Below, piece by piece: positions 5,896 through 23,927 of a stretch of 31,373 nucleotides of DNA. Source of the DNA: Elusimicrobiota bacterium (GTDB lineage Bacteria; Elusimicrobiota; Elusimicrobia; UBA1565; UBA9628); assembly GCA_028717865.1 (NCBI GenBank), contig JAQUMZ010000001.1:1-31373 (forward strand), given 5' to 3'. The position numbers and the translations under genes were made by a program. Numbering within the stretch: the first letter of the stretch is position 1; each line of letters starts with the position of its first letter. The notes beneath the pieces are model-generated. The model made no database searches and had not been told where the DNA came from. It saw only the letters and a list, made by a program, of their open reading frames with translations.

Positions 5896-7317
5896 TCAGG
5901 CCAGGGAAGGGGCGACCCATTTCTTGGCCAGCTCCAGCAATTCGCCCGTGCGCTTGGACGAGTCGGATTCGGCGTAGACGCGCATGAGCGGTTCCGTGCC
6001 CGAGGGCCGCATGAGCAGCCAATGGCCCTCGGCGAGGATGATCTTCAGGCCGTCGATCTGGAGCAGGGACTGTATCTCCGAGCCCAGTATCCTCTTGGGC
6101 AGCTTCTTGATCAGCTTGGCGACGAAAACGGCCTTGTCCGCGACGGGCTTGTGCAGCTTGAAGTCCACGCGCTTGAAGAACGAGGCGCCGTGCTTGGCTT
6201 CCAGCTCCTTCCACAGCTGACCGGGGCCTCGGCCGGTCTGCGTGACGATCTCGAGCAGCAGCAGCGCGGTCACCAGGCCGTCGCGCTCGGGCAGGCCGCC
6301 CTTCCAGGCGTAGCCGCCGGATTCCTCGCCGCCGATGACGGCGTCCCCCGCGGCGAGGCGGTCGGCGACATGCTTGAAGCCGACGGGCAGCTCCTCGAAC
6401 GGCAGGCCGTAGGCCTTGGCCATGCGGGAGGAGACGTAGCCCAGGGAGACCGACTGGACGATCTTGCCCTTGAGCTTGCGGCGCTCCACCAGATGCTGGA
6501 TGAGGAGGGGGAAAACTTGGCAGGGGGTCAGATAGCGGCCGTTCTCGTCGACCAGGCCCACGCGGTCGCCGTCTCCGTCCAGGGCCAGGCCCATCACGGC
6601 TTTCTCCTGGCGCACCCGCGCGCAGAGCTCCTGGAGATATGCCTCCACCGGCTCGGGGTTGAGCCCGCCGAAAAGAGGATCGTGCTCGGCGTGCATGGGG
6701 ATGAGCCGCGCGGTGGGCACCGCCGCTTCGAGCAGGCCGGCGGCCGCGCCGAAGAGATAGTCCACCACCACCGGCTTCTTCAAGCGGGATTTTATGCGGG
6801 CGGTGTCCGCCTTGCCGCGCAAGTGCTGCAGATAGGCTTCCCGGCCGGGCTTGGCCTTGATTTCCGCGCTGCGCGTCGGCTGGTTGCGGTCCAGGCAGGC
6901 CGCGATGCCGTCGGTGAGCGGTTCCATGGCGGCCCGGCCGGCGTGCTTGATCTTGATGCCGTTGTGGGAGGGAGGATTGTGGCTGGCCGTCACGACCACG
7001 CCCAGCCCCTTGGTCTTGTGGGTCAAAAGGCTGACGGCGGGGGTCGGGAGAGGTTCGGACATGAGCATGGGATTGAGCTTGTTGCCTTGGAGCACCTGGG
7101 CTATCTCGCGCGCGAAGGCTTCCGATTGGAAGCGGCGGTCGTAGCCGATCACCACGGGGCCGGCCCAAGGGGTCCGCTTGCGGTTGGGGGCCTTGAGGAT
7201 TTCCTCGTGCAGGTAGTCCGCGATGGCTTGGGCGACGCGGCGCACGTTCTCGAAAGTGAAGTCCCGGGCCATCACGCCGCGCCAGCCGTCCGTCCCGAAT
7301 TTTATTGCGTCCGCCAT
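5896..7317 (-). CDS. Phosphoglucomutase/phosphomannomutase
   Basis: FGTDGWRG, TASHNP phosphoserine, DGDGDR metal loop, GGEESGG, RPSGTEP. Confidence 0.96.
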   Translation of the reverse strand: MADAIKFGTDGWRGVMARDFTFENVRRVAQAIADYLHEEILKAPNRKRTPWAGPVVIGYDRRFQSEAFAREIAQVLQGNKLNPMLMSEPLPTPAVSLLTHKTKGLGVVVTASHNPPSHNGIKIKHAGRAAMEPLTDGIAACLDRNQPTRSAEIKAKPGREAYLQHLRGKADTARIKSRLKKPVVVDYLFGAAAGLLEAAVPTARLIPMHAEHDPLFGGLNPEPVEAYLQELCARVRQEKAVMGLALDGDGDRVGLVDENGRYLTPCQVFPLLIQHLVERRKLKGKIVQSVSLGYVSSRMAKAYGLPFEELPVGFKHVADRLAAGDAVIGGEESGGYAWKGGLPERDGLVTALLLLEIVTQTGRGPGQLWKELEAKHGASFFKRVDFKLHKPVADKAVFVAKLIKKLPKRILGSEIQSLLQIDGLKIILAEGHWLLMRPSGTEPLMRVYAESDSSKRTGELLELAKKWVAPSLA

Positions 7318-7333
7318 GAGGTCTCTCCTAAGT

Positions 7334-8398
7334 TCACAGTTGGCTGTAAGGCCGCAGGCTCGAGCCTCCGGCCAGGGCGCGGCCCGCCGAGATCGCCGCG
7401 TGCTTCCCTATCCGGCAACCCGGTCCGACCACGCAGCCCTTGAGCGCGGCTCCATCTCCGATCCGGCAGTCCCGCAGGACCACGCAATCCTCCAGGGAGG
7501 CGCCCTTGCCGATCTCGCAGCCCGGGCCGACGCAAACGTAGCGGGAGAATCGGACGAAATCGCCGACCCGGGTCCGTTCGCCCAGAAAGACTTTCCCTTC
7601 TTCTCCGTCGACGCTGAGTTCCCGGCCCAGGCGGACCCCCGGGCCAGCGCACAGCCTCTGGCGCCGCAGGCGCGCCGGCAGGTCCAGGGGGGCCTCGCCG
7701 CGCAGAAGGTCCAGGTGGACCTGGAGATATTTGTCCACCGTGCCGATGTCCATCCAATAGCCCCGGGAGATGAAGCCGAAGACCCGGGCGCCGGCCTCCA
7801 GCATGTGGGGAAACAAGGAGCGTTCCAGGGAGTAGGCGACCCCCGACGGCACGCGCCCGAGGGCGCCGGGCTCGAACAGATAGGCTCCGGCGTTGACCGT
7901 GTTCGTGACGACCTCGTCCCAGGACGGCTTTTCCAGGAAGCGGCGCACGCTGCCGTCCGGAGCGGTTTCCACGAGCCCGTATAGGGTCGGATCCTTCACG
8001 CGGGTCAGGGCTATGGTCAGTTCGGACCGGCCGCGGCGATGGCAGCCCAGGAAGGCCGTCAGATCGAGATTGTGCAGGATGTCGCCGTTGAGCACCAGGA
8101 CGGTGGAGTCGGGGCGCGGCAGGGCGTTCTTGACCGCGCCGCCGGTGCCCAGGGGCCGCCGTTCGTGCGCGTAGCGCAGGCGCAATCCCAGCCTCCGGCC
8201 GTCGCCCAGCATCCGATGGAACAAGCCCGGCTTGTAGGCCGTGCACAGGACGACGTCGCGCACCCCGTGGCGTTTGAGGACGTCGAATTGATACTCCAGG
8301 AACGGCCGGTTGACCACCGGCAGGAGGGGCTTGGGGAAATCGCAGGTGAAAGGCCGCAGACGCGTGCCCACGCCCCCGATCAGAATGAGCGCGATCAT
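7334..8398 (-). CDS. Second NDP-sugar synthase (mannose-1-phosphate guanylyltransferase-like)
   Basis: GGVGTRLRPFT..PKPLLPV, LNGDIL, FLEKP, YWMDIGT and beta-helix tail. Confidence 0.92.
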   Translation of the reverse strand: MIALILIGGVGTRLRPFTCDFPKPLLPVVNRPFLEYQFDVLKRHGVRDVVLCTAYKPGLFHRMLGDGRRLGLRLRYAHERRPLGTGGAVKNALPRPDSTVLVLNGDILHNLDLTAFLGCHRRGRSELTIALTRVKDPTLYGLVETAPDGSVRRFLEKPSWDEVVTNTVNAGAYLFEPGALGRVPSGVAYSLERSLFPHMLEAGARVFGFISRGYWMDIGTVDKYLQVHLDLLRGEAPLDLPARLRRQRLCAGPGVRLGRELSVDGEEGKVFLGERTRVGDFVRFSRYVCVGPGCEIGKGASLEDCVVLRDCRIGDGAALKGCVVGPGCRIGKHAAISAGRALAGGSSLRPYSQL

Positions 8399-8426
8399 GG
8401 CTTATTGAGGAATTGTACAAAAAATA

Positions 8427-8432
8427 TATACT
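8427..8432 (+). promoter_or_regulatory. -10 box (TATACT) 8 nt upstream of ATG 8441
   Basis: TATACT-TACGGCTT-ATG in an AT-rich divergent spacer; no SD. Confidence 0.5.
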
Positions 8433-8440
8433 TACGGCTT

Positions 8441-10570
8441 ATGGACGAGTTCCGGCCGCGTCCTCGGGTCCTGGCGTTGAGCCTGTTGTGCCTGGCGGGC
8501 TTCCTGGCGTGGCAAGCCGTCGCCCTGCGCTCTTATCTGCGCGTCGAAAGCCGGCCGCCCTCCTGGGACCAGTCCATCCACCTCGAGATCGCGCACGACT
8601 ACCGCGAGGCCCTGCGCGCGTGGGACTGGCGCGGAGTCATGTTCCTGGCGCCCAAGCCGGGAATGCCGCCCTTTCCGCCCCTGCACCATCTGGCGCTGGC
8701 CAAGCTGATGGGCGGCGCCGATCCCGAGGCGGCGGCCTTGTGGCTGAACTGGATGTATCTCGCGCTCTTGAGCTTCTCGCTTTTCGCGCTGGCCTGGCGC
8801 TTCCGTCCCGATGAAACCGCCGTCATGGGCGTGGTGCTCTTCTGCGCTTCGCCGGCCGTGCAGGACCTGCTGCATACCCAACTCGTCGATCTGGGGCTCG
8901 TCGCTTTCGCGGCCGCGGCCTACTGGGCGCTGTTCAGCAGCGAGGAATTCCGGCGCTGGAAGGGGACGCTGGCCTTCGGGATTTTGGTCGCCGGGGGCAT
9001 GTTGTTGAAGTGGAGTTTCTTCAGCTACATGCTGCCGGCGGGCTACGTGGCGCTCAAGGCCCTGGGTCTGCCGGGGCGGCGGCTGAAGGTAGCCGCGGCG
9101 GTGGTCCTGGCGGCGGCCGGCTGCGGGCCTTGGTACTGGATTCATTTCCCCGTTCTGCTGCCCCGGTTGTTCCAGGCCTCGGCCGACTTCGCCGTGCCCT
9201 TCTGGCGCGGCGGCGCGGTGCTGAGCTATGTCTGGATGGCCGCCGAGGGCCTGGGCCCGCTGTTTTTCCTGTTCGCGCTCATCGGGATTTTCCTGCCCCA
9301 GTTCCATCGCAACTGGCACCAGGGCTGGTTGCTGATCGCCTGGGTGAGCGCCGCCTTCGTTTTTTGGACCGTGGTCCCCAACCGGCAGATGAGGTTCCTC
9401 CTGCCGGGGCTGCCGGCCCTGGCCATCGCGGGCATGGGGCCTTGGCCCAGGTCCGTGTTTTGGGCCTTGACGGCGGTGCAGCTTTTCACCGCGGTAAATT
9501 TCACGGCGAACTGGATCGATCCGGCGGTCGTGCCGGTGCCCTGGGGTTCGATTCAGTTCTTTCCCTCGAGCCCCGCGGTGCGAGAGGACTGGAAGATCCG
9601 GGAAATCCTGGCCGAGACCGAGAAGCGCGGCGCGCAAAGCGGACTGCCCTTCGCCAACATGACCCTGGTGGCCAACGACACGAGGTTCAACGGTCCGAAT
9701 TTCAACTGGATGGCCAAAATGGCGGGCGCGTCCCACGTGCGCATCCGCGGCGTCAACAACCGCCTCTGCGAGCTGTCGCGGCTGGTGCTGCTCAAGACCG
9801 GCCGGTTGGGCCCGGAAAGCGTCATCTCGGGCCTGCCGGAGGCCGCCAAGATCATCCAGAATAAGCGGGGCTGGTTTCCCCGGGCCTATGAGGAGGCCCG
9901 GCGCTGGCCCCTGCCCGACGGCTCCGAGGCGGTGCTTTACCAGGTCCGAGGCCCCCAGGCGGCCCCCGTGCCGAGCGGGACCGTTCATTATCAATTCTTC
10001 TCCGCCGGCGCGTTCGAGGCCGCGGATATGGATATCTCGTTGGGGCCCTGGGATCCCGCGCGCGCGGCCTATCGTTCGGTGCAGGCGTCCGCCACCGAGG
10101 TCCAGCTGCGCGGCCTGCGTCTGACCGGCCTGCGCGCCGAGCTCGACGACGCCCTGTTCGTCCCAGTTTACGAGAAGAACAGCAACGTGTGGGGAGACGT
10201 GCGCCTGCTCAAGATCGGCCGTTTGCGCATCCAGTCGGCCCGCGTCAGCGGCGAGGCCATCCGGCGGTTCCTGGAAAAGCGGGTCCCCGGGCTGCGCATC
10301 GATTCCCTGGAGCTCGACCGGACGGCCCGGCTGCGGGGCAAGCTGGGCCGCTTCACGGTATCCGCGGAGCTGTCCGCCGAACTCGTGGCCGATCCCCCCG
10401 GTTTGCGCGTGGATCTGCGCGAGGCCCGGATCGGCGCCACGAAGATCCCCGATTTCCTGCTGCGGCCGCTGCGCAGCTTCACGCATCCCTTCCCGCCCTC
10501 GCCCGACACGCCGTTCTTCATCGACATCCCGGGCCTGAGCTTCTCCCAGGGCGCGGTTTCCATACCTTAG
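8441..10570 (+). CDS. GT-C (ArnT/PMT_2-like) glycosyltransferase with C-terminal LmeA/DUF2993-like domain
   Basis: Start reset to ATG 8441 because the track start at 8039 overlaps the opposite gene. WDQSIH luminal motif, many TM helices, LLKWSFF and PNRQMRFLLP; beta-rich soluble tail from about 10070. Confidence 0.75.
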   Translation: MDEFRPRPRVLALSLLCLAGFLAWQAVALRSYLRVESRPPSWDQSIHLEIAHDYREALRAWDWRGVMFLAPKPGMPPFPPLHHLALAKLMGGADPEAAALWLNWMYLALLSFSLFALAWRFRPDETAVMGVVLFCASPAVQDLLHTQLVDLGLVAFAAAAYWALFSSEEFRRWKGTLAFGILVAGGMLLKWSFFSYMLPAGYVALKALGLPGRRLKVAAAVVLAAAGCGPWYWIHFPVLLPRLFQASADFAVPFWRGGAVLSYVWMAAEGLGPLFFLFALIGIFLPQFHRNWHQGWLLIAWVSAAFVFWTVVPNRQMRFLLPGLPALAIAGMGPWPRSVFWALTAVQLFTAVNFTANWIDPAVVPVPWGSIQFFPSSPAVREDWKIREILAETEKRGAQSGLPFANMTLVANDTRFNGPNFNWMAKMAGASHVRIRGVNNRLCELSRLVLLKTGRLGPESVISGLPEAAKIIQNKRGWFPRAYEEARRWPLPDGSEAVLYQVRGPQAAPVPSGTVHYQFFSAGAFEAADMDISLGPWDPARAAYRSVQASATEVQLRGLRLTGLRAELDDALFVPVYEKNSNVWGDVRLLKIGRLRIQSARVSGEAIRRFLEKRVPGLRIDSLELDRTARLRGKLGRFTVSAELSAELVADPPGLRVDLREARIGATKIPDFLLRPLRSFTHPFPPSPDTPFFIDIPGLSFSQGAVSIP

Positions 10571-16634: not shown

Positions 16635-17909
16635 TCAGTCGACCTTTTCTTCCTTTGCCTTGTTCCCGCCGCCGAAGACCAGGCCGATCTGCGCCGAGAC
16701 CGCGAGGTTGGCGGGAATTTTCTTGTTCTCTTCCTCGGACTTGATCTGCTGCGTCGCGGGCGAGACCATGGCCGCCAAGTCCGCGGTGAAGTGCATGAGG
16801 TTGAACCCGAAGCCCATGGTGTAGGCCGTCTTGGAGCCGGCCAGGGCGATGTTGCGCGTCAAGCCGGCGCGCAGGGGGAGGTTGAGCCAGGAGCGGTTGA
16901 AGACGTTGATCTCGGCGCCCAGGCCGACGTTCTGGGAGGCGACCCCGTCGACCGGGGTGAGGTTACGGGTCAGGTCCGCGTCGGCCGCGACGGTGATGAA
17001 GCCCAGGGGGCTGGCCGCCGCGCCGAGGCGCAGGTTGCTCTGGAGGGGATAGCGCGCCCGCTCGCCGGCGGCGGTGGCTTGCGCGGGGTTGTCGAACTTG
17101 GGATTGTTGATGTTGCGGGCGCTCAGGCCGACGCGCGGCCGGGCCGGGACGACGCCGAATGTGCGCTGGATGTCCCACAGAACGCCCAGGTCCAGGCCCG
17201 GGGCCACGCTGGACTTGGCTCCGTTCTGGTACTTCTCGAAGGCGTTGCCGAAATCGGGTTCGGTGGTGTTGAGCATGAGGTCGTAGTAGCCCGCCTTGCC
17301 CGCCAGCAGCTTGAGCGCGGCTCCGGCGTAGAGGCCGGGCAGGAAGGGCAGTTCGCGGCCGTGGCCCACGCCGATCTCGGTCACGGAGAGGCCGCGCAGG
17401 GTGAGCTTGGAGTTGTTCGCGGTTGCGAAAGTCATCGGGTTTATGTTCGCCAAGTCGGCCTTGGGGATGGCGCCGATGTAGTTCAAATTATTGACGAACA
17501 AGGCGAATCTCTTTAACTTTACTTGCGCGCCTAGGCCGGCGTCTACGCGCAGGCCGTTGTCCGCGCGGTTGAGCTTGGCCAAAGCAGCGTTGATGTTGGG
17601 CTGTTGGCAGATGCCGCCGCCGGGGGTGTCCTTGCAGGCTTCGCTGATATCGTTCAGGTCGTTGGCGCCCTCCAGCATTTGGCCGGTGATCTCGGCGTGA
17701 GCTCCGGCGGGCACCTGGGCCCCGGAAGGGCTTTTGGCCGAGCCGAGGCTGGCCGGGTTCCAGTAGACTCCGATCGGACCTTCCGAGGCGGCCACGCCGG
17801 TTCCGCCCATGCCCATGGCCCGGCTTCCCAGCACGTGCCACTCCGTGGACCAGACTGGAGCGGTTAGAAGCAGTGTCGCCGCAAGAGACAGGAAGTAGCG
17901 CTTATTCAT
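16635..17909 (-). CDS. TraF-like (FadL-type) outer-membrane beta-barrel protein
   Basis: Signal peptide from ATG 17909 (MNKRYFLSLAA), GSRAMGMGGTGVA, YWNPASL and amphipathic beta-strands. Confidence 0.75.
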   Translation of the reverse strand: MNKRYFLSLAATLLLTAPVWSTEWHVLGSRAMGMGGTGVAASEGPIGVYWNPASLGSAKSPSGAQVPAGAHAEITGQMLEGANDLNDISEACKDTPGGGICQQPNINAALAKLNRADNGLRVDAGLGAQVKLKRFALFVNNLNYIGAIPKADLANINPMTFATANNSKLTLRGLSVTEIGVGHGRELPFLPGLYAGAALKLLAGKAGYYDLMLNTTEPDFGNAFEKYQNGAKSSVAPGLDLGVLWDIQRTFGVVPARPRVGLSARNINNPKFDNPAQATAAGERARYPLQSNLRLGAAASPLGFITVAADADLTRNLTPVDGVASQNVGLGAEINVFNRSWLNLPLRAGLTRNIALAGSKTAYTMGFGFNLMHFTADLAAMVSPATQQIKSEEENKKIPANLAVSAQIGLVFGGGNKAKEEKVD

Positions 17910-17916
17910 GGGGCTA

Positions 17917-17922
17917 AGTATA
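17917..17922 (-). promoter_or_regulatory. -10 box (TATACT) 7 nt upstream of traF-like ATG
   Basis: Minus strand TATACT-TAGCCCC-ATG. Confidence 0.55.
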
Positions 17923-17958
17923 GGCAACTGGATCAAGGAGGTCAAGCCGCGGCGCATT

Positions 17959-19055: not shown

Positions 19056-20223
19056 GGCGCGGCCGCCTTGCGCGCACTTCGGCCTATGCGGAGGCTGCGC
19101 CTGGCAGGACCGGATCTACGATGAGCAACTGCGCCTGAAGGCCGAAAAGGTCCTGGCCGCGCTTTCCTGCGGCGAGCCCTTGCCCCAGCCGACCGTCCAC
19201 GGGTCTCCGGATATCTGGCGCTATCGCAACAAGATGGAGTTCAGCTTCGGGGACGTCTATCCGCCCCGGCCGGAAGGGCCCGGCTTGAAGCTGGGCCTCA
19301 AGCCCAAGGGCCGCTGGTATGAGATCCTGGATATCGGGGAATGTCTTTTGGCCTCCGCGGAGGCGTGCGCCTTGCTGGGGCGGTTGCGCGCCTGGGCCGC
19401 GGCGGCGGGCGCGGCGCCGTATAATATCCGCCGCAAGACGGGCTTCTTGCGCCACCTTGTCCTGCGCGAAACCAGGGCGGGGGAGCGCATGGTCGTTCTG
19501 GTCACGGCCGAGGGGAGCTTGCCGGAGGCTTCTTTCCTGGCCGCGGTAAAGGAGTCCTATCCGGCGTCCACGGTCCTATGGGGGATCAACGCGAAGGAAT
19601 CGGACGTCGCGGTCAGCGACCGGCTGAAGATTCTGGACGGACCGGGCCACGTGACGGAAACCCTGCGCTTCGGGGAGCGCGAGCTCAAGTTCCGGATTTC
19701 CCCGCATTCCTTCTTCCAAACCAACACCACGGCGGCCAACCTGCTCTACGGCTTGATCCGCGAGTGGGCGGCCGCGGAGAAGCCGCGGACCATCCTCGAC
19801 CTTTACTGCGGCGGCGGCGGGATCACGCTGACTTTGGCCGACCTCTGCGCCAAGGTCGTGGGCGTGGAATCGTGCTCGGCCTCCGTGGCGGACGCCAATG
19901 CCAACGCCCGGCGCAACGGCCTGGCGGGCGCGGAATTCTACGACGGGGCCGTGGAAGTCCTGCTGCCGGCCCTGCTGGCCCTGGGGCCTCAGGTCGTCGT
20001 CTGCGACCCGCCCCGCGCCGGGATGCACGCCGGGGCGGCCGAGGTCCTGGCCGCGTCGGGGCCGGGCGCGGTCATTTACGTGTCGTGCAATCCTCTGTCG
20101 CTGGCCCGGGATTTGGCCGTCTTGACGCGAAGCTACCGCGTCGAGCGGCTGGCGGTCGTGGATTTGTTCCCGCATACGGAACACGTCGAGACCCTCGCGT
20201 TGCTGCGCCGCGTGAAAAAGTAA
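19018..20223 (+). CDS. rlmD: RlmD/TrmA-family RNA m5U methyltransferase, 4Fe-4S type, no TRAM domain
   Basis: CAHFGLCGGC, YRNKMEF, SFFQTN, DLYCGGG, DPPRAG, YVSCNP, DLFPHTEHVE. Confidence 0.9.
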   Translation: MSASSSSLPSPSKARPPCAHFGLCGGCAWQDRIYDEQLRLKAEKVLAALSCGEPLPQPTVHGSPDIWRYRNKMEFSFGDVYPPRPEGPGLKLGLKPKGRWYEILDIGECLLASAEACALLGRLRAWAAAAGAAPYNIRRKTGFLRHLVLRETRAGERMVVLVTAEGSLPEASFLAAVKESYPASTVLWGINAKESDVAVSDRLKILDGPGHVTETLRFGERELKFRISPHSFFQTNTTAANLLYGLIREWAAAEKPRTILDLYCGGGGITLTLADLCAKVVGVESCSASVADANANARRNGLAGAEFYDGAVEVLLPALLALGPQVVVCDPPRAGMHAGAAEVLAASGPGAVIYVSCNPLSLARDLAVLTRSYRVERLAVVDLFPHTEHVETLALLRRVKK

Positions 20224-20239
20224 AAGCCGGGCGCCGGCT
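20215..20239 (-). terminator. Possible intrinsic terminator for the LOG-fusion gene
   Basis: AGCCGG-CGC-CCGGCT 6-bp stem followed by TTTACTTTTT on the minus strand. Confidence 0.35.
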
Positions 20240-22404
20240 CAGTGGGAAATGACGTCCCAGGCTTCCTTCGCGGTGTCCACGATCCGGATGAGATTCAGGT
20301 CGCCGGGGCTGATGAGCCCCATTTCGGAAAAGGCCTGGAAATCCAGGATCTTTTTCCAATAATTTGCACCCACGAGAACTATCGGCCGGCGCTCCATCTT
20401 CCCCGTTTGCATCAGCGTCAATATTTCGAAGAGTTCGTCCATGGTGCCGAAGCCCCCCGGGAAGTAGACCAGGGCCATCGCTCCGTGGCGCAGGGCCATC
20501 TTCCGGGTGGGGAAGTTCTCGAACTCGAAGGAAAGACCGGGCGTGATGTAGCGGCCGAGGCCTTGCTCCTTGGGCAGGATTATGTTGAAGCCCACGCTCG
20601 GTCCGCCGGCCTCGAAAGCGCCTTGGTTCCCCGCCTGCATGATGCCGGAGTCGGCGCCGCCCGTCACCAGGGCGATCTTGCCTTCGCCGTTGATCGCGAC
20701 CAGCCGGCCCAGCTTGCGGGCTTCTTCATGGTAGCGGGACATGCGCAGATCGACTTTCGCCTGGGCCAATTCCTTGCGGCCGGCTTCCTGCGCCGGCTTC
20801 GAGCCCCATTTGCGCACCGCCGCCGCCAATGCCTCCTTGGCCGCTTCCGGGGTCTTGATGCGCGCGCTGCCGTAGATGGTGACCGTGGCTTTTATGCCGT
20901 GCTCGCGCAATATCCGGGCCGGTTCCTCGATCTCGCGCACGATGCGGTCCGTGTCCACGGCCGGAGCGCGCTTGATCGTGTTGGGAATGGGAAGGCGGGG
21001 CAAGAGGCTTTTGACCTGGTCCGCGATCCAGGAAACGGCTTCCACGGAGGCGTTCTTTCGGAACTTCGCCCAGATGCCGCGGGCGGTCTCGACCTTGCTT
21101 TGTCCGACCAGGTCGTCGATGCGCCGCAGGACCTGCTCGGCCTGGAAATGATGGCGGGCCTGGCTGGCCGGTGAATGCGGATCGCCGGGGGTCAGGCCGA
21201 GGCGGTTTACATGCCGTTCCACCTGGTTCAGGTTCCCCTGCCGCAGCAATATTTGCGCCCGGGTCAAATCGGAGCGCTTGGTGGGCTGTTCCCGCAGGGG
21301 CGAAAGCATGCGGGCAGGGGATATTTTTTTCCACAGGTCCTGGGACGAACGGTTGAATACGTTGACCTCGCCCGGCTTGGGCCCCAGGAATACGACCTGC
21401 GCCAAGGCTCGGCGCCTGGCCCCGGCCAGCGCCTGTTCCACCTGGACGGGCGTGAGCTCGGAATCGCCGGGCAGTTCGAAGACCGCGACGCCGCTGCCCA
21501 AGCCGTGGCGCTGTGCGTGCGCGAAAAGCTGGGTTTCGGCCGAGGTAAGGCGCGTGCGCAGGGTCGCGCGGTCCTTGCCGGTGAAATACTTGAGCTCGAC
21601 TAGCCGGTCGCCCATGACCAGGTCCGGGGTTTGGCCGCCTTCTTCTTCTATTAGGACCCGTATGTCGTTGGACAACAGCAAGAGCTTCTTGATGGCGCGA
21701 ATCTCGTGGGACTGCAGATTCGGTATCCGGTCCACGAGTTCGGGCCGGCCCGATACGTCTATGCCGGTGAAGGTCCCGCCCCGGGAGTCTCGGTACGTGT
21801 AGACCTGGTATGGGGCCATTTCCCCCACGTTTTGCAGGAGCCGGGCCCGCAAGACCGCGGAGTTCTTCTGCGCGGGGATCAGGCGCATGACGTCGGCGGC
21901 CGTGCGCACCGTGTCCACGGAAACGGATTGGACGCCCGGAGGCAGGCGGAGCGCGGGCGAGCCCGATTCCACGGCCGCGGCCGGGCCGGCGCCTTGGTCG
22001 AAGAAGCGCTGGGATAACCCCTCTGGGGCGGCCTTCTCCAGGCCGGCGGCCAAGTGTTCAAGCGAGCCGAGAGCGGGGGCGAGGCGGGCCGCGGCGGGGG
22101 CTTCGGTCTGCGGCTTGAGTATCGAAGCTGGGGGCGCGAGCTGCGTCCCGGGTTCTATCTGAGGAACCGCGATCGGGATGGCCGGGGGAGCCAACTGCGG
22201 CACGGCCAATTCCGGAGCCACGCGCGTTCCCGGGACCAGGGCCGAGCCGGTGAGCGCGGGCGCGTTGAGATTGCTGGTAAATACTGCTGAAGGAACGACC
22301 GTTATTTTGGGGACGTTGGTACGAGTCCGCGCGGCCGGGCCTGCCTCCAACGGAGAGGCCGTCAAGCCAGCCAGCAACGACACAAGCCATATCTTGTAAC
22401 GCAT
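20239..22404 (-). CDS. Signal peptide + Pro/Ala linker + PD-(D/E)XK (CdiA_C-like) nuclease-like domain + LOG/TIGR00730 nucleosidase domain
   Basis: C-terminus has TIYGSAR, LPKEQ and PGGFGTMDE (LOG). Middle has HE...TPDLVMGDRLVELK...AETQL. N-terminus MRYKIWLVSLLAGLTASPLEA. Confidence 0.8.
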   Translation of the reverse strand: MRYKIWLVSLLAGLTASPLEAGPAARTRTNVPKITVVPSAVFTSNLNAPALTGSALVPGTRVAPELAVPQLAPPAIPIAVPQIEPGTQLAPPASILKPQTEAPAAARLAPALGSLEHLAAGLEKAAPEGLSQRFFDQGAGPAAAVESGSPALRLPPGVQSVSVDTVRTAADVMRLIPAQKNSAVLRARLLQNVGEMAPYQVYTYRDSRGGTFTGIDVSGRPELVDRIPNLQSHEIRAIKKLLLLSNDIRVLIEEEGGQTPDLVMGDRLVELKYFTGKDRATLRTRLTSAETQLFAHAQRHGLGSGVAVFELPGDSELTPVQVEQALAGARRRALAQVVFLGPKPGEVNVFNRSSQDLWKKISPARMLSPLREQPTKRSDLTRAQILLRQGNLNQVERHVNRLGLTPGDPHSPASQARHHFQAEQVLRRIDDLVGQSKVETARGIWAKFRKNASVEAVSWIADQVKSLLPRLPIPNTIKRAPAVDTDRIVREIEEPARILREHGIKATVTIYGSARIKTPEAAKEALAAAVRKWGSKPAQEAGRKELAQAKVDLRMSRYHEEARKLGRLVAINGEGKIALVTGGADSGIMQAGNQGAFEAGGPSVGFNIILPKEQGLGRYITPGLSFEFENFPTRKMALRHGAMALVYFPGGFGTMDELFEILTLMQTGKMERRPIVLVGANYWKKILDFQAFSEMGLISPGDLNLIRIVDTAKEAWDVISH

Positions 22405-22555: not shown

Positions 22556-22630
22556 GCGCTCTTAACACAATGGATAGTGTCCGAGCCTGCGAAGCTCGGT
22601 ATACAGGTTCGATTCCTGTAGAGCGCACCA
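22556..22630 (+). tRNA. tRNA-Arg (anticodon GCG), CCA encoded
   Basis: Cloverleaf: acceptor GCGCTCT/AGAGCGC, D ACAC/GTGT (GG then A20), anticodon stem CGAGC/GCTCG with loop CT-GCG-AA (22589-22591), T ACAGG-TTCGATT-CCTGT, then A-CCA. Confidence 0.97.
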
Positions 22631-22850
22631 CTTTCCCGACCCCAAGCCCGCGGCCGATAAGACGGGCTCGTCACGAAAGTTCGTAGGTCTAAAGGATAAA
22701 ATTTTATAGGCCGAAATACCTCCCGGCTTCTAAGCTTTTTGGCTTATGCGGATTCTTGCGTATCTGCGCTACAATCTCAATCCGCATGGAAATGGAAGAG
22801 CGTTTCTATGCCCTGACGGTGGTCCTGGCTTTCCCATGGGGGATGCAATT

Positions 22851-23927
22851 ATGAAAAAAAGCGTCCGGTTGTCCGTGATCGCTGGCAACGTTCTGGTAAT
22901 GGCAGTTGCGCTGCATGCTCAGGAATTCGACGTGCATGGGACCCTGAGCGCGGCCAGGAATCTGGCCAGCCGCCAAGCCGGCATGGCTGGTCAGCCGGTC
23001 GCAGATGCAGCGGACAAGGATTTCATCGCCAAAAGTTATATGAGCGGGATATTCCTCTCTGCGGACAAGCTGGCTCAGGCTTTCCAGCAGGCGGTCGGCT
23101 CATCGTTCAAGTCCTTTGCGGACCAGGGTTTGGTCAAGGTCGTGTCCGCCAAGCAGCGCAGCGCCACTTATCAAGTGGACTACCTGGTCAAGGCGGATAA
23201 CGACACCGAAACCGTGGGCGACGAGGATGTTTTCTATATTCCAAAATACGGGCTCTTCCGTACCCACAAGGACGCCCAAGACGCCATGGCCGCCAAGAAA
23301 GACGAGCTCAAGCCCAAATACAGGTCGGTCGATGGAACGATCGATACCAAGCCCGGGGAAGACGGCTACGTCGGCTACTTCTGCAAGATCGTGGCCTCGA
23401 ACAAGCATGAGGTGCTCGTAAAGAAGCCGAAAGTCTTCGATGCGGAAGATACGAAATACTTTGCTGACCTAACCGGCGCCGAAGTCTCCCAGATCGCCGG
23501 CAACCTGGCGGCTTTATTCAAGGAGCTGAAATTCCCCGTGCTGGGCATAACCAACGTCCGCAGTTGGAACGACACCTACGCCAACGGGTTTTCCGTGGCC
23601 TTTCTCACCCAAAACGATTATTACCGTAAACATGCCACCTTGGATTTGGTCTCTGATGGCGGGCACTCTTCTTTATATTGGGCGTCCTTGTTCGCATGCA
23701 ACGTCGAATCCGGATGGGCCTATTATGGCGGGTCCTGGGACGGGCATTATCATTCGCGCGAGGAAGCCCAGGCCGAGGCTGCCCGGATATTAGCCGCCAA
23801 GAAAGCCGAGGTGGCGGCCAAGGGCGGGCGGGTGCTCTTCGAGACTATCGCGCCTTACGGCAGCGACCGCTTGAGGGCAAGGGTCATATGGGTGGACCCC
23901 GGCAGCATCGCGCGCGCGGCGAAATAA
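22851..23927 (+). CDS. Secreted hypothetical protein
   Basis: Signal-like MKKSVRLSVIAGNVLVMAVALHA from ATG 22851; no family recognised; TACAAT at 22770-22775. Confidence 0.7.
   Translation: MKKSVRLSVIAGNVLVMAVALHAQEFDVHGTLSAARNLASRQAGMAGQPVADAADKDFIAKSYMSGIFLSADKLAQAFQQAVGSSFKSFADQGLVKVVSAKQRSATYQVDYLVKADNDTETVGDEDVFYIPKYGLFRTHKDAQDAMAAKKDELKPKYRSVDGTIDTKPGEDGYVGYFCKIVASNKHEVLVKKPKVFDAEDTKYFADLTGAEVSQIAGNLAALFKELKFPVLGITNVRSWNDTYANGFSVAFLTQNDYYRKHATLDLVSDGGHSSLYWASLFACNVESGWAYYGGSWDGHYHSREEAQAEAARILAAKKAEVAAKGGRVLFETIAPYGSDRLRARVIWVDPGSIARAAK

Follow-up and report, generated by a model that had tools for sequence, protein, structure and literature searches.

A predicted exported protein joining a CdiA-type nuclease domain to a type-II LOG domain in one order of Elusimicrobiota

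The contig JAQUMZ010000001.1 of an Elusimicrobiota bacterium (assembly GCA_028717865.1) begins with the stretch of 31,373 nucleotides that we analysed here and refer to as the window. On its minus strand, at 20239..22404, lies an open reading frame (ORF) of 721 amino acids (aa) plus stop, read directly from the sequence and called P0001 below. The protein is made of five parts, namely a signal-peptide-like N-terminus, a Pro/Ala-rich linker, a folded nuclease domain, a helical spacer and a type-II LOG domain. A model of the full-length protein placed a helix at aa 2-15, a folded module at aa 150-361, helices at aa 377-501 and the LOG domain at aa 502-720, with a predicted template-modelling score (pTM) of 0.53, at which the relative placement of the domains is undefined. 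An earlier interpretation of the same letters, made without database searches (the sequence-only reading), had described an exported fusion of a CdiA-like nuclease to a LOG nucleotide hydrolase and had offered three functions for it, as an effector, a scavenger or a defence protein.

The nuclease module starts with an N-terminal subdomain at aa 150-228 (21721..21957, minus strand), delimited by alignment and model, which consists of a strand, helices and a beta-hairpin and in which P155, G157, Y204, D216 and P228 are near-invariant. It is followed by a PD-(D/E)xK core of the CdiA_C (PF18451) kind at aa 229-352 (21349..21720, minus strand), with a proposed active site of E234, (E254), D261, E270 and K272. 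The P-D-x8-E-x-K stretch lies at 21589..21624 on the minus strand, where the codons of D261, E270 and K272 occupy 21622-21624, 21595-21597 and 21589-21591, respectively. The segment SHEIRAIKKL...VAVFEL, singled out by the sequence-only reading, corresponds to aa 232-311 and contains D261-x8-E270-L-K272 just as it had described. No sequence match was found for aa 1-500 of P0001 in Pfam, NCBIfam or the PDB, and the middle region gave only low-complexity or chance matches among PDB chains, whether the query was its single sequence or a family profile.

The evidence for the domain came from its conservation and from its modelled fold. In alignments of 40 to 66 family members, H233-E234, E254, T259-P260-D261, E270-x-K272, A289-N-x-Q292 and R299-H300 were invariant or at least 90% conserved. 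The pattern HE...PD...ExK was matched by 58 of 63 members and, because it is near-invariant in these relatives, sequence comparison indicates that the PD...ExK motif of P0001 is not a product of chance. The possibility that the catalytic residues would prove to be poorly conserved in homologs, raised earlier as an objection to the nuclease assignment, can thus be set aside. When the 63 core domains were each scanned against Pfam at E <= 1, CdiA_C (PF18451, gathering threshold 26.6 bits) was matched by 30 of them, below or near threshold and with a best E of 4.4e-5, and every other Pfam family was matched by only one of the 63. P0001 itself had no PF18451 match even at E <= 1 and is therefore not a formal member of the Pfam family; a PF18451 search of its own genome gave no match either.

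AlphaFold2, supplied with the 63-sequence alignment, modelled aa 150-352 with a mean predicted local distance difference test score (pLDDT) of 94.2 and a pTM of 0.90. A Foldseek comparison of the model with the PDB yielded one match below E 0.001, which was 4g6v_A, the CdiA-CT(II) toxin of Burkholderia pseudomallei 1026b. The following matches were XisH-like 2okf (7.0), CdiA-CT E479 (6.3), Can2, Card1, NucS and SfsA, and later ones were CdiA-CT TA271 (5.4) and CdiA-CT YPIII (5.1), every one of them a PD-(D/E)xK protein. The top matches of three PDB structure searches were nearly all PD-(D/E)xK nucleases and included all four CdiA-CT members; in its modelled form, the domain bears its closest structural likeness to members of the PF18451 family. 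The nuclease domains of Can2 and Card1, as well as Spirochaetota proteins of 188 aa, aligned across the whole module. Among the AlphaFold DB clusters, rank 1 was a relative of 639 aa automatically named 'AMP nucleosidase' (template-modelling (TM) score 0.89), and ranks 2-30 were mostly 'tRNA nuclease CdiA C-terminal domain-containing protein' or phage MuF/SPP1 gp7 proteins. The ESM Atlas clusters agreed with this result, with a pre-toxin TG protein among the closest named clusters. The restriction-endonuclease fold anticipated for the middle region was thus recovered in a confident model whose nearest solved structure is a CdiA-CT tRNase. Judging from alignments and model, aa 150-361 is a PD-(D/E)xK nuclease domain that belongs to the CdiA_C clade and has every residue of the E...PD...ExK set; its cleavage activity is predicted.

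The 1026b CdiA-CT toxin has the active site E187, D214, D223 and K242, is Mg2+-dependent and cuts tRNA-Ala in the acceptor stem (review, PMC9086364). With these residue numbers, the spacing E187-27-D214-9-D223 of the toxin (PDB 4G6V; PF18451) is the same as that of E234-27-D261-9-E270 in P0001, a correspondence that we deduced from spacing and alignment ranges. However, the two domains share 16% identity only, the lysine of P0001 stands in the classical ExK position whereas K242 of 1026b is on the following helix, and about 80 aa at the N-terminal end of the P0001 nuclease form an additional subdomain. The settings also differ. In P0001 the nuclease is internal and behind a Sec-type signal, instead of being at the tip of a filament as in CdiA, and it is not accompanied by CdiI, CdiB or a pre-toxin motif.

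The second catalytic module, a type-II LOG domain at aa 502-721 (20242..20901, minus strand), was identified by Pfam, TIGR00730 and structure matches. PF03641 covers aa 589-717 (E 5.6e-29, 101.4 bits vs 27) and TIGR00730 scored 110.5 bits against a cut-off of 96.35; both bear out the complete LOG domain with PGGFGTMDE that had been noted before. All of the LOG motifs are intact in P0001, namely GGADSGIM, R634-K635 and PGGFGTMDE at aa 649-657 (20434-20460, minus strand, from the sequence). The best match in sequence to a solved structure was Thermus TT1465 (1wek, E 2.2e-30). Type-II LOGs, including 5wq3, 5zi9 and 9us2, were matched with E from 1e-28 to 2e-30, compared to E 1e-10 or weaker for type I. 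The full-length model ranked the LOG relatives by fold in the same way as sequence did, with TM scores by target of 0.8-0.87, and showed an insert of about 30 residues, helical and specific to the family, behind the first LOG strand. The equivalog model for PpnN, NF038390, reached 13.1 bits against a cut-off of 450. Among the LOG-bearing relatives most retained the catalytic motif and a few were degenerate. The LOG domain of P0001 is an enzyme-type type-II LOG with all motifs, and phosphoribohydrolase activity on 5'-nucleoside monophosphates (NMPs) is predicted from its sequence.

Type-II LOGs of known structure (TT1465, 1WEK; C. glutamicum, 5WQ3; S. coelicolor, 5ZI9; Neisseria YgdH, 9US2) are 30-33% identical to that of P0001 and have GGxxG-M, RK and PGGxGTxxE in common with it. 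Unlike these stand-alone cytoplasmic proteins, the LOG of P0001 forms the C-terminal end of a protein of several domains that is apparently exported, and it has an insert and follows a spacer. In E. coli PpnN (YgdH), as in P0001, extra domains are joined to a LOG-fold domain, which in PpnN cleaves NMPs to base and ribose 5-phosphate; however, the accessory domains are different, and PpnN is cytoplasmic and alarmone-regulated. Two further LOG-family genes were found in the genome from which the window was taken (contig C300, 1495-1884, and contig C33, 4894-5280, in open frames of 201 and 369 aa). Therefore, the exported fusion would not be the only LOG of the cell.

The N-terminus of P0001, aa 1-21 (22342..22404, minus strand), reads MRYKIWLVSLLAGLTASPLEAG and was classified as signal-peptide-like by a hydrophobic-core heuristic, being modelled as a lone helix at aa 2-15. 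It has a charged start, a hydrophobic core of 13 residues and no acidic residue; in the heuristic test the hydrophobic window scored 2.36 with two basic residues ahead of it. The cleavage site could be placed only approximately, at about aa 16-22. The same crude test was passed by 42 of 59 full-length relatives, and most of the failures look like truncated gene calls. Neither a lipobox cysteine nor a twin-arginine motif occurs in the N-terminus of P0001 or is conserved in the family, and export as a lipoprotein or by the Tat route was rejected on this ground. Export of P0001 across the inner membrane by a Sec-type route is a well-founded prediction from this hydrophobicity and charge heuristic.

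In most family members the predicted signal peptide is followed at once by a motif V-x-R-[VI]-x-V(-x-x-P) and then by a Pro/Ala-rich stretch; in P0001 the motif is only degenerate. A 180-aa ORF on another contig of the same genome (C456) is made up of a signal peptide, AVGRIAVKG and a P/A-rich stretch. The motif may have a role in sorting, anchoring or uptake. The Pro/Ala-rich linker of P0001, aa 22-149 (21958..22341, minus strand), is largely disordered apart from a short helix at aa 108-125, as indicated by model pLDDT and composition. Alanine makes up 21% and proline 15% of aa 22-148, and the pLDDT in the full-length model falls below 50 at aa 18-90, 92-105 and 135-148. Composition and modelled disorder agree with the linker proposed by the sequence-only reading; it is about 130 aa long. 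The spacer between nuclease and LOG, aa 377-501 (20902..21276, minus strand), was modelled confidently as about six helices and is matched by no known family, in Pfam or the Atlas. It is common to LOG-bearing members and to some without LOG.

A word-indexed homologue search found two relatives by protein and nothing new by profile, and the family was revealed by an exhaustive HMMER search. The two indexed relatives, of 433 and 446 aa, are without LOG and 39% identical to P0001 over aa 1-400; the exhaustive search, made with their alignment, returned 74 cluster representatives. LOG is carried by 21 of 40 members scanned with PF03641 and by 24 of 76 according to phmmer. P0001 is colinear through nuclease, spacer and LOG with an orthologue of 718 aa, P0012 (aa 111-720, 46% identity, E 4e-171), and 20 of 35 matching genomes have at the match an open frame longer than 600 aa, the length expected of a LOG fusion. 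On the strength of the end-to-end colinear orthologue and the 20 genomes, we rejected mis-assembly or chimerism. The concern that the fusion might be a one-off assembly error is answered by its recurrence in many independent assemblies, and the fusion is real and old.

We surveyed 401 genomes of the phylum, among them that of the window, and the counts are over the other 400. The family was present in 31 of 47 genomes of its own family and in 3 of 10 genomes of a second family in the same order (34/57), and was not found in the 343 genomes of other families searched in the phylum. It was always present as one copy per genome. The named matches are Elusimicrobia metagenome-assembled genomes, one of which came from groundwater.

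The C-terminal part of the protein is less constant. Two sister species of the window's genus encode forms of 432-436 aa that stop shortly behind the first helix of the spacer, an indication that the spacer and LOG were lost. In one relative, P0008 (locus L040, 6001-7647, GCA_026388115.1), spacer and LOG are replaced by a barnase/T1-type ribonuclease (PF00545, E 7e-13), and no barstar-like gene is adjacent to it. On a tree of the nuclease domain the presence of LOG was scattered, with 18 changes; many of the 'LOG-less' representatives look like truncated metagenomic gene calls, and the tree was therefore not used to count gains and losses. Exceptions are the clear LOG-less clades, namely the forms of 432-436 aa in the window's genus and those of another genus, g3. 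In genome G327 the orthologue (locus L024, 6010-8309) is apparently split by a frameshift into a 506-aa ORF at 6010-7530 and an overlapping 552-aa ORF in another frame at 6651-8309, which could be a pseudogene or a sequencing error.

In the window, a convergent tRNA (uracil-5-)-methyltransferase-like gene ends at 20223, 15 nucleotides (nt) from the stop codon of P0001. Directly after this stop codon and between the two convergent genes, a terminator-like GC hairpin with a T-rich tail was read at 20224..20240 (minus strand). A tRNA-Arg(GCG) gene lies at 22556-22630 on the strand opposite to P0001. Both of the flanks that had been named earlier, the convergent rlmD-like gene 15 nt away and the divergent tRNA gene, were thus located. 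We considered a functional tie between P0001 and the tRNA-Arg gene and dropped it, as no relative's locus conserves the tRNA gene; its position beside P0001 is probably incidental. No immunity-like gene was found at the P0001 locus within the window. Just past the tRNA gene is a 393-aa ORF at 22746-23927 (plus strand) with an internal start, then a signal-peptide-like segment, MKKSVRLSVIAGNVLVMAVALHAQE, and no Pfam match. Farther away, a 440-aa ORF at 16635-17957 (minus strand) matched TraF_2 (PF13729, E 1e-21) and is overlapped on the opposite strand by a 348-aa ORF without a Pfam match.

In four genera the family gene adjoins, divergently, a block of genes for IMP dehydrogenase (guaB), GMP synthase (guaA), SAICAR synthetase (purC) and PurS. 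In the same genera it is followed in an operon by DUF4234 and DUF2752 membrane-protein genes, and beyond these by a Fic gene and a serine recombinase. At one such locus (L022, 6120-9039), the family gene (6120-8276), DUF4234 (8273-8644) and DUF2752 (8641-9039) each overlap by 4 nt. These overlaps suggest, at the sequence level, a translationally coupled operon, an arrangement that is conserved in several genera. The gua/pur adjacency is absent in the window, and the window's genome has DUF4234 unlinked on contig C322.

No soluble immunity-like ORF was conserved downstream across 20 loci. DUF4234 and DUF2752 were considered as immunity genes and dropped, being membrane proteins and unlinked in the window's own genome. 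The statement that no immunity gene follows P0001 therefore holds within the window, and has to be qualified for other genera, in which the two membrane-protein genes do follow in an operon. Small ORFs between guaB and the family gene in genus g4 were discarded as Arg-rich antisense artefacts. In a sister species of the window's genus, the LOG-less family gene is followed by a convergent Fic gene. At locus L001 of a sister species, a protein with ankyrin repeats and NADase_transloc (PF25302; 14177-15136) and a Fic gene lie a few kilobases from the LOG-less orthologue, and the gene immediately upstream of it encodes an unannotated protein of 841-872 aa.

We tentatively favour, at somewhat less than an even chance, the explanation that P0001 is an extracytoplasmic tethered nuclease and NMP N-glycosidase used for scavenging nucleic acids and nucleobases, its localisation and activity being predicted. 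The protein would be exported across the inner membrane and act on a flexible tether in the periplasm or at the cell surface. The nuclease domain, presumably metal-dependent, would cut RNA and possibly DNA of outside origin. PD-(D/E)xK nucleases leave 5'-phosphate ends and LOG needs 5'-monophosphates; therefore, the chemistry of the two modules is compatible. Other nucleases would reduce the 5'-phosphate products to 5'-mononucleotides, LOG would hydrolyse the N-glycosidic bond of these to give free nucleobase and ribose 5-phosphate, and the released bases would be taken up and salvaged. A toxin-type nuclease fold would in this way have been domesticated as a housekeeping scavenging enzyme, and the lack of an immunity gene would be accounted for, because export itself would protect the producer. 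A more specific proposal, that the CdiA/MuF tRNase fold was domesticated in one order as the core of an exported, tethered two-enzyme machine that, with the type-II LOG, converts environmental RNA or DNA to bases outside the cytoplasm, is one that we hold with more doubt than confidence.

The logic proposed here, in which an outward enzyme supplies transportable purine or pyrimidine units, is shared with the class I nuclease of Leishmania and with periplasmic EndA/UshA-like pairs. The Leishmania ecto 3'-nucleotidase/nuclease is described as serving purine salvage (PMC13232948). Those systems have unrelated folds and provide nucleosides via phosphatase, whereas P0001 would give free bases via an N-glycosidase. 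BP1253 of Bordetella pertussis is a LOG that is predicted to be exported and for which a purine-derived signal has been proposed (PMC6864091). Like P0001 it is a LOG predicted to be outside the cytoplasm; it differs in consisting of one domain and lacking a nuclease, and its placement outside the cytoplasm is likewise only predicted. Full-text literature searches found no description of an architecture of signal peptide, CdiA-like nuclease and LOG, and BP1253 was the only related precedent. The fusion of a CdiA_C-type nuclease to a type-II LOG behind a signal peptide appears to be undescribed, lineage-specific and conserved.

The three functions offered by the sequence-only reading did not fare equally: the scavenger fits best, as an inference, while the effector or toxin has been weakened and defence is disfavoured. 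As a toxin, P0001 would be a Sec-secreted, bacteriocin-like antibacterial protein, in which the disordered N-terminus with V-x-R-V-x-V mediates uptake, the nuclease cuts the tRNA or DNA of the target and LOG destroys its nucleotide pools. Nuclease colicins, with their unstructured translocation domains and TonB/Tol boxes, offer an analogy, and the conserved strand-like motif after the signal peptide could be such an uptake box. The closest solved structures and the named AlphaFold DB and Atlas clusters are indeed CdiA-CT, MuF/SPP1 gp7 phage toxins and a pre-toxin TG protein, the C-terminus is plastic in the window's clade (LOG, barnase-type RNase or none), and genes of a conflict type (Fic, recombinase, Ank-NADase) lie near some orthologues. 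However, the marks of a polymorphic toxin are missing in P0001, in which Pfam finds only LOG and hence no known delivery or pre-toxin domain, the nuclease is internal and no immunity gene follows in the window, nor is one conserved, as a soluble ORF, in the 20 loci. The nuclease forms a conserved core, unlike a C-terminal tip that is swapped, no variable cassette structure was found, and the gene is single-copy, orthologue-like and not patchy, with synteny kept across genera. Such vertical inheritance as a single copy in a kept gene order, with neither a delivery domain nor an immunity gene, weakens the toxin reading, which we consider doubtful, though a serious rival all the same. In contrast, scavenging is favoured by the absence of a delivery domain, immunity gene or patchy distribution, together with orthologue-like inheritance at one copy per genome and the gua/pur neighbourhood in four genera. 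It is also in line with P0008, as the replacement of its LOG belongs to an RNase family with classic secreted enzymes.

A defence system of the SLOG type would be membrane-tethered or cytoplasmic, with a LOG that senses or processes a signalling nucleotide and switches on the nuclease during phage infection. This is very improbable, because the PADLOC models gave no match at E <= 1 for P0001 or P0003, the LOG is much closer to enzyme-type type-II LOGs (E 2e-30, with the full set of catalytic motifs) and the predicted topology is that of an exported protein, the positive charges ahead of the hydrophobic segment predicting that the bulk of it is outside the cytoplasm. Furthermore, there are no partner cyclase or CRISPR genes nearby, and LOG-less orthologues exist. 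An enzyme exported for some purpose other than feeding, for example the remodelling of envelope or biofilm nucleic acids or the making of a purine-derived signal, would draw on the same structural facts as scavenging. The B. pertussis precedent (PMC6864091) and the operon with two small membrane proteins, DUF4234 and DUF2752, in several genera speak for such a role; nevertheless, it is a residual category in which nothing is specific for any one role, and we regard it as unlikely.

Several points weigh against scavenging. The nearest characterised relatives of the nuclease are highly specific tRNase or DNase toxins and not bulk nucleases. An endonuclease by itself yields no mononucleotides, so that an exonuclease step is needed, for which no enzyme was identified. 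Ribose 5-phosphate set free outside the cytoplasm is a poor nutrient, and these genomes encode purine synthesis genes, so the microbes are not obvious auxotrophs. The gua/pur adjacency, missing in the window, may be inherited synteny without functional meaning. The variation of the C-terminal module within the window's clade is reminiscent of toxin cassettes, and Fic, serine recombinase and Ank/NADase genes are found near some orthologues. The signal-peptide prediction is heuristic, and the functional reading of the family was built from sequences and models.

Both domains of P0001 come from well-known families, and their combination behind a signal peptide is undescribed in the literature searched; public databases label a relative simply 'AMP nucleosidase'. 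If the protein were a toxin, it would be an immunity-less, Sec-secreted toxin with dual activity, which would likewise be unusual. If scavenging is its true function, a fold of nucleases that is otherwise familiar chiefly from interbacterial toxins and those of phages would here serve a conserved exo-enzyme with a housekeeping task. The cell exterior would become a site of LOG chemistry, P0001 would contain the first LOG outside the cytoplasm for which a partner activity is defined, and nucleic acids would be scavenged by a new route that gives bases via an N-glycosidase instead of nucleosides via a phosphatase. For the uncultured groundwater Elusimicrobia, this would be a concrete trait of nutrient acquisition.

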